From sequence record MK373795.1: DNA of 63,595 nt, one strand, 5' to 3'. The notes beneath the pieces were generated by a model. That model did no database searches, was not told the origin of the DNA, and saw only the letters and a program-made list of their open reading frames with translations. Positions 37,187 through 42,403 of this stretch are shown piece after piece. Positions within the stretch are counted from its first letter, which is position 1; every line of letters starts with the position of its first letter. This stretch comes from Escherichia phage vB_EcoS_HdSG1. The position numbers were made by a program, and so were the translations under genes.

Positions 37187-38140
37187 TTATTCGTCAAATA
37201 AATCCTGGAGGCGTTCGTTGAACTTCCCATTGTGGTTAGCAAGAATCATAGCGTTGACCACGCCATACGCCCATAAATTGTATGCAGCGCGTGATTCGTA
37301 TATCGTTGAAAGTCGTTCGTATGTGAAACCTGACTCCTCTAAGTAGCGCAGAACATTATTCTGTTCTATTTCTGAAAGATTACAAATATGCTGTCCTTGA
37401 TAGTGGCGTGACGGGGACTTTTCAGATACCTGCATTGGACCCCACTTAGGAGTTTCAATAGCACCAAACGCCGCGGATTGAATCCAGGAGGATGAGTCAC
37501 AGGAGTACCACGGGTAACGCTCCATAAGCGGGCGGGACGTAATACCAAAACCATGGACTTTAATCTTAGCGCGCCCACTACCGTCTACAAGGTGTTTATC
37601 CCATACCCTGTCCAGCCATACCTGAAGTTGTTGTGTACTTGCTCCAACAAGACCACCGAGCGTGATATATTCATAATTTCGCACATAATGGTCCAGGTAT
37701 TCAAAAGGTTCACCGGCGTGGAAGCATGGTAAAGGTCTTACACCTCTGGCTTCCATCTCTTCCTGGTTGCGCCACGTTTGAAGTGGATCTCCGATACCAT
37801 CGAGTACAGAAGCCATAAGCGAACCATCTTCTACACGGATGATATCTATGTTTCGTTGGATGTAATCACAGTATTCTTTAACCGATAACGTAACTCCCAA
37901 AGTGTAAGCTGAGAACGCTCCGGAGTCGAGGAATATCTTGGCCCCATCGGCACGCATGGCATCAACATAGGATTGCTTTCCAACGTAGTGCCAGGATTCA
38001 AGAATGTTTGGAATATTCTCAACAACACGTTTTTCTTGTTCGTTAAGTTTGACATAGCGGTTCATTCCTGGTTTATAGCTGTTCGTATATACGGCAGCCA
38101 TATAAATCTGAAAGGTATAGTTGATATCTTGTCTGTGCAT
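37187..38140 (-). CDS. dpdA: DpdA-like 7-deazaguanine DNA transglycosylase (TGT family)
   Basis: 317 aa; TGT-like LDSGAFSAY and GGLVGAS; adjacent to preQ0 biosynthesis genes; RBS AGGTGA. Confidence 0.6.
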   Translation of the reverse strand: MHRQDINYTFQIYMAAVYTNSYKPGMNRYVKLNEQEKRVVENIPNILESWHYVGKQSYVDAMRADGAKIFLDSGAFSAYTLGVTLSVKEYCDYIQRNIDIIRVEDGSLMASVLDGIGDPLQTWRNQEEMEARGVRPLPCFHAGEPFEYLDHYVRNYEYITLGGLVGASTQQLQVWLDRVWDKHLVDGSGRAKIKVHGFGITSRPLMERYPWYSCDSSSWIQSAAFGAIETPKWGPMQVSEKSPSRHYQGQHICNLSEIEQNNVLRYLEESGFTYERLSTIYESRAAYNLWAYGVVNAMILANHNGKFNERLQDLFDE

Positions 38141-38209
38141 TGTTCACCTAACAAATAAGCGCCCGTAGGCGCTTATTATATTAAAGATAATGTATGATTC
38201 GCAAATCAG

Positions 38210-38839
38210 TTACTTTTTACACGCTTCAAGAAATTCCCGACGCCATGTGTCACCAGTCACGTCCGGTAATACACCATCACCCAATGCAGTACGTCCGCGG
38301 AATGCTTTAGTGATAGTTGAGCTGCCGCATACCTGTTTAACACCGCGCGACTCCATGCACATATGTTTTGCATCAATGTAGACGCACACAGCTTTCGGCT
38401 CTAAATGGTCACGGATAGCGTCCGCAATCTGGTTAGTTAGACGTTCCTGGACTTGCAAACGTCGAGCGAAAGCATCAACTACACGAGATAACTTGCTGAG
38501 ACCGACAATTTTTCCATTTGGAACATATCCAACCACCGCATGACCAATAATAGGAGCCATGTGATGCTCACAATGACTATATACAGGGATATCGCGGACG
38601 ATGACCATTTCATCACAGTCTTCCCCACCATCTTCAAACGTCTTGAACAGGGATGCGATATCGACAGAATAACCCCCGAACCATGTAGCATAAGCCTTAG
38701 CTACACGATCTGGAGTTTCTACTAAACCTTCACGAAGATCAGTAGTATCGTACCCTTCAATAACAGATAGAAGATTTCTTACAGCTACTTGAATTTGATG
38801 CTGATGAGATTTCAACTCTAAATAATTTATATTTGACAT
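38210..38839 (-). CDS. folE: GTP cyclohydrolase I
   Basis: Signature YSHCEHHMAPIIGHA; start at ATG 38839 (26 nt after queD stop). Confidence 0.85.
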   Translation of the reverse strand: MSNINYLELKSHQHQIQVAVRNLLSVIEGYDTTDLREGLVETPDRVAKAYATWFGGYSVDIASLFKTFEDGGEDCDEMVIVRDIPVYSHCEHHMAPIIGHAVVGYVPNGKIVGLSKLSRVVDAFARRLQVQERLTNQIADAIRDHLEPKAVCVYIDAKHMCMESRGVKQVCGSSTITKAFRGRTALGDGVLPDVTGDTWRREFLEACKK

Positions 38840-38865
38840 GGTTTGCAGTTTCCTTGTGTGGTCAA

Positions 38866-39399
38866 TTATTTGCAATAGTTAACATGGCATTTGGACGTTT
38901 CTTCAATGGTACATTCTACCAATTCAACACCATATTGGTCAAGCAGTTGAGGACCAATTACGTCAACCATATATGCAGCTAAGTTTTCCGCAGTTGGGTT
39001 GAATGGTAAAGCTACCAAAGAATTAAAGAAAGGATCATAATCTTCATCGGTCACTAAATTGTTTTCACGTGCAAACTTAGTTGATGCAACAACAATGAGC
39101 GAATTAATCATGCTGTCTTGTTCCCAATGCAGGAACTTATGATCCCAGTTATCTTCCAACCACTGGCAAAGCGTAGTTTTAACCACACTAAAGTCGATAA
39201 CGCGGCCTACATCGTCCAAGGATCCTTCTAGAGCAAATCCACTTACAGACTTAACGTAGCCTTCCGACAATGTTTTCTTTGGTGCAACTTTAAAATGGAA
39301 CTTATAGTTGTGGCCATGAAGATGGCGACACTTACTTTCATGCCCTACGACACGATGCCCCGCGCAAATTTCATGTGAACGAATAACAGTGTAACCCAT
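38866..39399 (-). CDS. queD: 6-carboxy-5,6,7,8-tetrahydropterin synthase
   Basis: 177 aa; CxxxHGH-type motif CRHLHGHNY. Confidence 0.75.
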   Translation of the reverse strand: MGYTVIRSHEICAGHRVVGHESKCRHLHGHNYKFHFKVAPKKTLSEGYVKSVSGFALEGSLDDVGRVIDFSVVKTTLCQWLEDNWDHKFLHWEQDSMINSLIVVASTKFARENNLVTDEDYDPFFNSLVALPFNPTAENLAAYMVDVIGPQLLDQYGVELVECTIEETSKCHVNYCK

Positions 39400-40816: not shown

Positions 40817-40817
40817 A

Positions 40818-41576
40818 TTATTTACCTTCCTTAACCATTTCAATTTCACGCTCAACGGATGCAATAATATCGTTGAGGTCTTCCAGTAAGTCTTTATGAC
40901 CGCGCTCACCAGCACACAGCACTTTCTTCAGTGCATGTTGCATGGGCCCACTGGTTACATTGAATGCTTTAATTACGTCGTACACGTCAACCCACACATC
41001 AATTTCAATTGGGCTACCGTTAATGTCATGGGATTCAAAACTTTTGATTTTGCGCATATATTTATTTGGACGTGGAGCTTTAATATCCTGGACGCAATCC
41101 TTATTAACAAACGCTTCATTAACGAATAGTTCAGGCTCGCCTTCTTTGTTACGATCAACTTTAAAGACGCTCGAAAGTACATCTTCCATGATACCAGCTA
41201 ATTTTTCAGAAGAAGTTTTATGATTTTTAACCATCTCTTCCACTTCTTCCGCTTTCTGTGTTCCGCTAACAGAAGCACTAATGCGCCATTTGTAAAGCGC
41301 ATTACGCGGAGGCGTCACATGCGTGTTATAGACTGTCTTTAAGTTCATAAGATCAGTTCCATCCATACCTTCAACAAAGACAGTGAGTTCGGGACTGATA
41401 TCGTTCAGAACATCTACTAAATATCCTTCTCGAATTACAGATGCAAGAGCTGTATTTGACGCCGCCTGAGAAACTGTGGTCACATAATGTTTTACAAATC
41501 CATCTTCATCAAACAGACACTGGTTTAACACATTTTGTGGAACAATCTGACCGAGTAATTGAATATGCTTATTCAT
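40818..41576 (-). CDS. hypothetical protein embedded in the deazaguanine cluster
   Basis: 252-aa ORF, tightly packed between queE and gat-queC; no confident motif. Confidence 0.6.
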   Translation of the reverse strand: MNKHIQLLGQIVPQNVLNQCLFDEDGFVKHYVTTVSQAASNTALASVIREGYLVDVLNDISPELTVFVEGMDGTDLMNLKTVYNTHVTPPRNALYKWRISASVSGTQKAEEVEEMVKNHKTSSEKLAGIMEDVLSSVFKVDRNKEGEPELFVNEAFVNKDCVQDIKAPRPNKYMRKIKSFESHDINGSPIEIDVWVDVYDVIKAFNVTSGPMQHALKKVLCAGERGHKDLLEDLNDIIASVEREIEMVKEGK

Positions 41577-41638
41577 AACGATTTACCTTATTAGTTGAAC
41601 ATACCATGTCTTCTAGCGCGTTTTGAATATGTATAACT

Positions 41639-42403
41639 TCACTCCACACCTAAATATTTGTGGATCTGCAATTGCACGATGTAATTGTGCTTCATTGCAT
41701 ATTTAACGACAGCTTGAGCATTTGCTTTATTAGAATCGTCGTCCTGTTCATCCATAGGTTGAAGATAAATCTTACCTTTAAAGTGTACAGGCGGACGTGC
41801 GATAAATGGTGTCGCACGGTGATCCAGTGCCTGCAACGGTAATCCATCTTCCTCGTTGACGTTTCCACTTTTCATTACATATTTGAAAGCATCCGCTCGA
41901 GCGGAAACGCTAGGGTGAACCTTTGCTGCCTTAGGACTACATACTACCACACAGTTATAGTTGAGTTCACGCGGGATAGGCATAGTTCCGTTAGTTTCAA
42001 CCTGTACTCGATAACCTTTCATATCAATAAGGTAGTTGATAAAATTAGCAACTTCAGGTTGACGGAAAGGTTCGCCGCCAGTAATGACAACTAAGTTAGT
42101 CTTGGCTTCACCAGTAACACGGACAATCTCTTGCCAAATGTCACCGTGATTCATCTTCTTACGATTGGACGTATAGTTTGTATCACATCCTGGGCATTGC
42201 AGATTACAACCAGCTAATCGAACAAACACGGCAGGTTGACCACAAAACGGGCCTTCACCTTGAATGGTATGAAAAATGGAATGCACGTCAAGAATACCAC
42301 GTTCACGAACTAACTTCTCAGGTTCCTGAGTATTAATAATTTTCATATGATTTCCAAATTTGGCTTGAGCCCAGTGGTGGGCGATAATGGCTTGTGCAAA
42401 CAT
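41639..42403 (-). CDS. queE: 7-carboxy-7-deazaguanine synthase (radical SAM)
   Basis: CGQPAVFVRLAGCNLQCPGCDT cluster motif; start ATG 42403 with GAGG. Confidence 0.75.
   Translation of the reverse strand: MFAQAIIAHHWAQAKFGNHMKIINTQEPEKLVRERGILDVHSIFHTIQGEGPFCGQPAVFVRLAGCNLQCPGCDTNYTSNRKKMNHGDIWQEIVRVTGEAKTNLVVITGGEPFRQPEVANFINYLIDMKGYRVQVETNGTMPIPRELNYNCVVVCSPKAAKVHPSVSARADAFKYVMKSGNVNEEDGLPLQALDHRATPFIARPPVHFKGKIYLQPMDEQDDDSNKANAQAVVKYAMKHNYIVQLQIHKYLGVE

Follow-up and report, generated by a model that had tools for sequence, protein, structure and literature searches.

What does the block of co-oriented genes at positions 37187-42403 of Escherichia phage vB_EcoS_HdSG1 (HdSG1) do to the phage DNA? 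A sequence-only reading of the window, by which we mean the whole 63,595-nt stretch of record MK373795.1, had proposed that genes of the preQ0 pathway act with a DpdA-like transglycosylase and a Gat-QueC fusion to replace genomic guanine with an archaeosine-type base, and that this base shields the DNA from restriction. We conclude that the cluster very probably represents the 9g-type pathway of the genus Nonagvirus, predicted to swap part of the genomic guanine for 2'-deoxyarchaeosine (dG+). This conclusion is drawn because the cluster is near-identical to the characterised system of phage 9g, because its catalytic motifs are intact, and because profile searches agree with the assignments. 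The dG+ system itself is already known and is characteristic of Nonagvirus.

Judged by its sequence, the window is an essentially complete genome of the genus Nonagvirus, subfamily Queuovirinae; its first 25 kb are 97.7% identical to phage HdK1 and begin at the same point as the HdK1 record. The cluster matches phage 9g at 94.9% nucleotide identity over 100% of its length, and is 90-94.5% identical to JenP2, JenK1, HdK1, SP8, ESCO3, SE1, ChristophMerian, and other Nonagvirus genomes. At the protein level, identity to 9g is 100% for DpdA and QueD, 99.2% for QueE, 98.3% for Gat-QueC, 85.6% for FolE, and 80.6% for ORF252, a conserved open reading frame (ORF) product considered below. Codon differences from 9g are overwhelmingly synonymous (24 synonymous to 0 non-synonymous in dpdA, 21 to 0 in queD, 17 to 2 in queE, and 26 to 8 in gat-queC), and the genes are therefore under purifying selection. 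Gene order and orientation are also those of 9g (Nonagvirus nv9g, 9g_00003-00008): dpdA, folE, queD, gat-queC, a hypothetical ORF, and queE, in both phages downstream of a clamp gene and a family B polymerase gene. HdSG1 differs from 9g in that residues 2-33 of FolE are replaced and in the diverged hypothetical ORF, and its cluster lacks small inserted ORFs such as those of ChristophMerian and FritzHoffmann.

The functions of these enzymes, the presence of dG+ in DNA, and resistance to restriction have been shown for the near-identical 9g proteins. 9g folE, queD, and queE complement the matching Escherichia coli mutants (Hutinet et al., 2019; PMC6884629). When expressed alone, 9g dpdA gives rise to dPreQ0 in plasmid DNA at 0.03-0.3% of G; together with gat-queC it yields dG+ at ~5-18% of G, also in a ΔqueC host, and confers resistance to EcoRI (PMC6884629). 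These experiments on the orthologues support the proposal of a preQ0 and DpdA pathway in its Gat-QueC, dG+ variant. In 9g virion DNA, dG+ accounts for 25-27% of G, and this DNA resisted ~71% of 214 type II enzymes (PMC5567051). In vivo, Nonagvirus phages withstand type I as well as type II restriction-modification systems but not type III (PMC8594841).

The HdSG1 cluster consists of six co-oriented minus-strand ORFs that fill positions 37187-42427, with intergenic gaps of 1-69 nt and a plausible ribosome-binding site before each start codon. The limits given in the sequence-only reading coincide exactly with gene ends, the dpdA stop codon finishing at 37187 and the queE ATG starting at 42403. 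Every motif it named is found in the translations, and its description of contiguous, co-oriented genes holds for orientation but not for strict contiguity, since ORF252, which it left unmentioned, lies between gat-queC and queE. All five products of dpdA, folE, queD, gat-queC, and queE are named by PHROGs, which we searched along with Pfam and NCBIfam.

The gene needed for the formamidine (G+) form, gat-queC (39401-40816, minus strand), encodes 471 amino acids if translation begins at the ATG of MCSIFG; its ORF reaches an upstream GTG at 40915. This ATG, which places a Cys right after the Met, lies 1 base past the stop codon of the upstream gene and has the ribosome-binding site AAGGAAGG in front of it. 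The protein is a fusion of a class II (N-terminal nucleophile, Ntn) glutamine amidotransferase (residues ~1-235; 40112-40816) to QueC (residues ~250-471; 39401-40066). It matches Pfam QueC PF06508 at 1.4e-55 (188.5 bits, residues 253-458, above the cut-off), GATase_7 at 9e-07 (residues 97-217, 29.4 bits against a cut-off of 25), and phrog_10428 at 5.8e-287, while TIGR00364, at 148.9 bits, falls marginally below its cut-off of 150.3. The translation contains HNGTIAND, the SGGMDS PP-loop, and the four-Cys zinc site CYRNGDLHCGTCGPC (Cx8CxxCxxC). It differs from the 9g protein at eight amino acids.

The three enzymes of the upstream pathway are recognised with varying ease. The product of folE (38210-38839, minus strand; 209 amino acids from the ATG, the ORF reaching a TTG at 38875), a GTP cyclohydrolase I, matches PF01227 at 6e-62, beyond the curated Pfam threshold, scores 190.9 bits with TIGR00063 (cut-off 181.6), and carries the motifs HCEHH, which includes the CEHH signature, and HMCMESRG. 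The queD product (38866-39399, minus strand; 177 amino acids), a 6-carboxytetrahydropterin synthase, matches the PTPS family PF01242 (1.2e-20; 74.2 bits, cut-off 22.4) and phrog_2389 (4.7e-55) and contains CRHLHGH (CxxxHGH); the QueD-specific model TIGR03367 stays under its cut-off, at 63 against 89. The product of queE (41639-42403, minus strand; 254 amino acids from the ATG, as in the 9g annotation), a radical-SAM 7-carboxy-7-deazaguanine synthase, matches Radical_SAM at 8.6e-11, above the cut-off, Fer4_12 at 3.6e-06, and phrog_2076 at 1.1e-69, and has the cluster motif CNLQCPGC (CxxxCxxC). Its five top NCBIfam matches are all QueE models, yet they score 76-93 bits against cut-offs of 200-300; we assign the function from the 99.2% identity to 9g QueE, an enzyme able to complement E. 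coli ΔqueE.

The transglycosylase gene dpdA (37187-38140, minus strand) encodes 317 amino acids of subfamily DpdA1, the class to which the 9g protein has been assigned (PMC10516641). The alignment to DpdA of the Seuratvirus phage CAjan, at 69% identity, has no gaps. Nine residues of CAjan DpdA have been assigned by a homology model to the preQ0 pocket and two catalytic Asp (Kot et al.); D63, S64, F67, D105, H132, G153, G154, F189, and D206 of that protein correspond to D72, S73, F76, D114, H141, G162, G163, F198, and D215 of HdSG1 DpdA. All nine are invariant among close homologues. Among 50 diverse homologues drawn from a search of 1.84 billion proteins, D215 is invariant and seven of the eight others are at least 90% conserved, F76 being the exception. 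Some of the metagenomic homologues (P0204, P0209, P0215, P0222, and P0337) are ~600 residues long. In P0204, 312 residues are inserted between YPWH and SVDSSSW, 2 residues before the catalytic Asp (between HdSG1 DpdA residues 212 and 213). The insertion opens with Cys, closes with TGN ahead of a Ser, and encloses a LAGLIDADG-like motif, ILADGT; it has no match in Pfam. From these sequence features we take it to be a probable intein that carries a homing endonuclease.

In the proposed pathway, FolE would first convert GTP to dihydroneopterin triphosphate (H2NTP), and FolE, QueD, and QueE together would carry GTP to 7-carboxy-7-deazaguanine, which the QueC domain of Gat-QueC would turn into preQ0. 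DpdA, a presumed distant relative of tRNA-guanine transglycosylases (TGTs), would exchange guanine in double-stranded phage DNA for a deazaguanine base after replication, in keeping with the post-replicative base exchange proposed for deazaguanine DNA modifications (PMC10516641). The Gat domain would supply the ammonia that turns the nitrile into the formamidine of G+, either before or after insertion into DNA; the order was left open by Hutinet et al. (2019; PMC6884629), and we found no later paper that resolves it. Bulky and positively charged, the group that G+ places in the major groove would block restriction by most type II enzymes and, in vivo, by type I enzymes. The same group would also expose the DNA to modification-sensing defences; the glycosylase Dag1 attacks 9g DNA (2025 preprint).

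Which guanines would be exchanged? Tsai et al. saw no pattern among the resistant sites of 9g DNA (PMC5567051), and the 9g modification motif was described as unknown in 2023 (PMC10484667). For CAjan DpdA the motif has been measured experimentally and comprises GA and GGC. We re-analysed Supplementary Table 1 of Tsai et al. for the 212 restriction enzymes that have sites in 9g, and compared, for each enzyme, its digestion class with the fraction of its 9g sites that have no G in a given context. The mean fraction of sites free of GA and GGC falls from 0.88 for enzymes that cut completely to 0.54 for partial, 0.17 for very partial, and 0.05 for resistant digestion. With a Spearman rho of 0.84, GA+GGC ranks at the top of 48 GN+GNN motif pairs, followed by GA+GCC, the same base pairs read on the other strand (0.80); the remaining pairs reach at most 0.61. 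GA alone gives 0.59, control dinucleotides give -0.10 to 0.21 (GG 0.21), and the highest rho over 2000 label permutations is 0.29. Addition of a third motif (GGT and others) to GA+GGC brings no better agreement with the digestion classes.

The extremes of the data set show the same trend. Enzymes without any free site comprise 113 resistant, 7 very partial, 1 partial, and 1 complete, and those with every site free comprise 5 resistant, 1 very partial, 9 partial, and 25 complete. If recognition sequences alone are considered, 73/77 enzymes with a fixed GA and 15/16 with a fixed GGC but no GA are fully resisted, while all eight enzymes with A/T-only sites cut completely. The target of 9g-type DpdA is thus most likely the G in 5'-GA-3' and 5'-GGC-3', and because HdSG1 DpdA is identical to 9g DpdA the same specificity is expected in HdSG1. 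This assignment for 9g-type DpdA is an addition of the present analysis and should be read as a lead, not as an established finding.

The same genes could in principle make a different product or act on a different substrate. The cluster might insert dPreQ0 instead of dG+, as in Seuratvirus, if the Gat half of Gat-QueC were inactive. Of the eight differences from 9g in this protein, S82T, V96I, G111D, L126I, T219N, and T221A lie in the Gat half, and 9g dpdA by itself does insert dPreQ0 (PMC6884629). However, the N-terminal Cys, HNGTIAND, and the GATase_7 match are all intact; residue 111 is as in JenK1 and JenP1, and residue 440 as in JenK1, JenP1, and JenP2 (alignment in the supplement of PMC5567051); and the synonymous differences in gat-queC far outnumber the non-synonymous ones. 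Loss of the Gat activity is accordingly very improbable. Even less likely is that the genes act on tRNA of the host or the phage, to make queuosine or archaeosine there, and not on DNA. Older annotations, 'queuosine tRNA-ribosyltransferase' and 'queuosine biosynthesis', point that way, but 9g dpdA fails to complement E. coli tgt, 9g gat-queC fails to restore queuosine in tRNA, and the two genes together modify DNA (PMC6884629). Moreover, dG+ has been measured in virion DNA itself (PMC5567051), and we regard a tRNA function as practically negligible.

Several observations weigh against the dG+ pathway as we describe it, and those on the target motif lead to a further alternative, in which HdSG1 DpdA recognises GA only and the resistance of GGC sites is a neighbour or enzyme-specific effect. 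The DpdA of Pseudomonas phage iggy, 67.6% identical, modifies GA only. GA and GGC together account for 30.2% of the guanines of 9g and for 30.1% of those in the HdSG1 window, somewhat above the dG+ content measured in 9g, to which the share of GA alone (26.2-26.3% of G) is nearer. TaqI (TCGA) cuts completely despite its GA, and HpaI (GTTAAC) and BtsI are resisted although their sites contain neither motif; four further exceptions are resistant enzymes with just 1-2 sites each. The evidence is also indirect, as a resistant site does not reveal which base is modified. On the other side stand the rise of the rank correlation once GGC is added to GA, the near-complete resistance to enzymes with a fixed GGC and no GA, and the complete cutting of GC-rich sites that lack GGC (HhaI, BstUI, Fnu4HI, Cac8I, FspI, and AciI). 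Taken together, we consider recognition of GA alone unlikely and retain GA and GGC as the preferred target of 9g-type DpdA.

The remaining adverse points concern DpdA as a protein, FolE, and the step from 9g to HdSG1. Profile searches, to which the sequence-only reading had tied its DpdA and QueC assignments, recover QueC above the Pfam cut-off, but for DpdA neither Pfam nor NCBIfam returns any match, and the name comes from phrog_887 alone ('queuine tRNA-ribosyltransferase', 2e-98). Among the 50 diverse homologues there is likewise no match to Pfam, the TGT family PF01702 included, and a profile built from them reaches the bacterial DpdA 7ui4 only at E = 0.21, in an alignment that spans sensibly placed GGMV, HGFG, and S-DSS motifs. 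An AlphaFold2 (AF2) model from 30 close homologues shows alternating strands and helices but is poor (predicted local distance difference test score, pLDDT, 57; predicted template-modelling score, pTM, 0.51). Foldseek comparison of this low-confidence model with the Protein Data Bank (PDB) gives nothing significant (best E = 0.24); the non-significant matches are mostly TIM barrels, with the TGT 5i02 at rank 29 (E = 1.1). Profile and structure comparison thus leave the link of DpdA to the TGT fold unproven, and our assignment is made because the protein is identical to the experimentally tested 9g DpdA, not because of profiles. FolE is less similar to its 9g counterpart than the other pathway enzymes, with the differences concentrated in residues 2-33. 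Finally, that HdSG1 does the same as 9g is what we infer from its genes.

The FolE N-terminus deserves separate description. Residues 2-33 (38741-38839, minus strand) are nearly all unlike those of 9g, and the N-terminus is 5 residues longer, while the remainder of the protein is near-identical. This pattern suggests that the N-terminal swap marks a recombination boundary at the queD-folE junction.

If GA is a target, the base that follows a restriction site can determine whether its terminal G is covered. In 9g, 7/7 PstI, 7/7 BsiWI, and 11/12 PvuII sites are flanked so that the terminal G falls in a GA context; in HdSG1 the flanks are protective at 7/7 CGTACG, 14/15 CAGCTG, and 6/6 CTGCAG hexamers. 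We extended the count to all palindromic C....G hexamers without internal GA, TC, GGC, or GCC. Protective flanks occur at 71/98 sites in HdSG1 (53.5 expected, z 3.6), 66/86 in 9g (46.4 expected, z 4.3), and 76/107 in CAjan (58.0 expected, z 3.6), compared with 24/47 in unmodified T1 (27.3 expected, z -1.0); the idea is post hoc, T1 is a single control genome, and HdSG1 and 9g are not independent of each other. Non-palindromic C....G hexamers lie merely 2-4 points over expectation, and Fisher tests of palindromic against non-palindromic hexamers give p = 0.018 for HdSG1, 0.003 for 9g, and 0.006 for CAjan. The bias is suggestive of selection against unprotected restriction sites, and we offer it as a lead only: a possible evolutionary footprint, with palindromes of the restriction type found preferentially in positions that the modification can reach. 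The 63.6 kb of HdSG1 also contain no HindIII (AAGCTT) and no KpnI (GGTACC) site and a single EcoKI site (AAC N6 GTGC). The EcoKI sequence has no fixed GA or GGC, so that site avoidance, not modification, may explain resistance to EcoKI.

ORF252 (40818-41576, minus strand; 252 amino acids), unannotated but conserved, is found at the same position in every Nonagvirus compared, and in a contig from a more distant part of Queuovirinae a relative with 39% identity likewise sits between queE and queC. The protein comprises a Queuovirinae-specific N-terminal domain, a variable linker (residues ~100-165), and a C-terminal domain (residues ~168-250). Differences from the 9g copy cluster at residues 100-165, the low-confidence part of the AF2 model, while the terminal domains are conserved; pLDDT is 72 overall and ~77-92 over most of the length of both terminal domains. 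Strong conservation marks the C-terminal 80 residues, with the motif NKY.R.IK...VDVYDV...H.LKK.L..G.RGHKD...D..DI..S..R. In this protein HdSG1 shares 98% identity with phage SP8 and 80.6-82% with 9g and HdK1, which indicates that the locus is mosaic.

ORF252 as a whole matches phrog_18443 (2.4e-154), and its C-terminus alone matches several PHROGs of unknown function. Nothing was found in Pfam (even at E up to 10), in NCBIfam, in a PDB sequence search, or by Foldseek against PDB. Foldseek against BFVD returns DUF3310, SaV-like, and 'nucleotide kinase' entries for the C-terminus (probability 0.9-1.0, E-values 0.005-0.1). The DUF3310 and SaV-like entries superimpose with a root-mean-square deviation of 1.0-1.8 Å over ~56 columns, while the 'nucleotide kinase' entries superimpose poorly, at ~18 Å. 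At the sequence level, the link to T7 gp1.7/DUF3310 consists of a weak shared match to phrog_25460 alone (0.015 and 0.0011), and hhalign puts the probability of a match between the ORF252 family and T7 gp1.7 at 0.3%. The model thus suggests, through a weak match over a short domain, that the C-terminus has a DUF3310/T7 gp1.7-like fold; in T7 gp1.7, a nucleotide kinase, DUF3310 has been linked to the enzyme's activity (PMC10700055).

We also considered the C-terminal domain as a marker of deazaguanine phages and rejected it. It occurs in 755 phage records, mainly from Salmonella and Escherichia phages, mostly Jersey-like and Kagunavirus-like and most of them without DpdA, while DpdA occurs in 232 records, only three of them Salmonella phages. 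No que genes surround the domain in phage Jersey or in a 92-kb metagenomic contig. We hold it possible but doubtful that ORF252 takes part in the Queuovirinae deazaguanine pathway as a sixth component, so far uncharacterised, and owes its place in the cluster to more than chance. If it does, ORF252 may return guanine nucleotides toward GTP for preQ0 synthesis, a kinase role suggested by analogy only; alternatively, it may partner DpdA or Gat-QueC and help to reach ~30% replacement.

Comparison with known systems places the cluster among relatives that share parts of its chemistry. CAjan also carries DpdA1, FolE, QueD, and QueE beside a clamp and a family B polymerase, and its GA/GGC target is measured, whereas that of HdSG1 is predicted. 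CAjan has a plain QueC without a Gat domain and therefore dPreQ0, not dG+. Its cluster includes a putative preQ0 transporter gene, which the HdSG1 window lacks, and a 189-residue protein that shares the C-terminal domain of ORF252 (49% identity) but differs in N-terminus and position. The arcTGT system of tRNA has in common with HdSG1 the preQ0 precursor, the Gat-QueC fusion architecture, and base insertion by transglycosylation (PMC6884629); it acts on position 15 of tRNA, whereas the HdSG1 pathway would act on DNA, and arcTGT is a much larger TGT that Pfam recognises, unlike HdSG1 DpdA. The bacterial Dpd restriction-modification system (DpdA, DpdB, and DpdC; 7ui4) likewise uses a DNA-guanine transglycosylase to insert preQ0 into DNA. 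Bacterial DpdA, however, needs DpdB and modifies <0.1% of G, and its product is converted to dADG by DpdC (PMC10516641); the HdSG1 cluster contains none of these partner genes.

The neighbouring 657-residue protein (phrog_1252) finds its best PDB match in Sulfolobus Pol B1 (1.4e-08) and its next ones in E. coli Pol II and Pol alpha; it is adjoined by a clamp-like protein (phrog_947). Its earlier assignment to family B holds, but the accompanying claim that it must copy a modified template is trivially true at most: no special tolerance is implied, because the modification is proposed to be post-replicative and because Phusion, Q5, and Taq, which are ordinary PCR polymerases, can each replicate 9g DNA. 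A 12-bp stem-loop followed by TTTTT (34182-34209, plus strand) sits immediately downstream of the gene for the family B polymerase, between the converging late (plus-strand) and replication (minus-strand) blocks. A 9-bp GC-rich stem-loop with a weak T tract after it is found between ORF274 and queE (42426-42448, minus strand). Promoter and terminator signals counted across 33.8-44.5 kb were no more numerous than in shuffled sequences, and we therefore make no claim about operon structure.

HdSG1 is one more Nonagvirus isolate with the 9g dG+ pathway, which is useful for annotation. The phage is predicted to resist most type I and type II restriction systems, and it would be sensitive to modification-sensing defences such as the Dag1 glycosylase.

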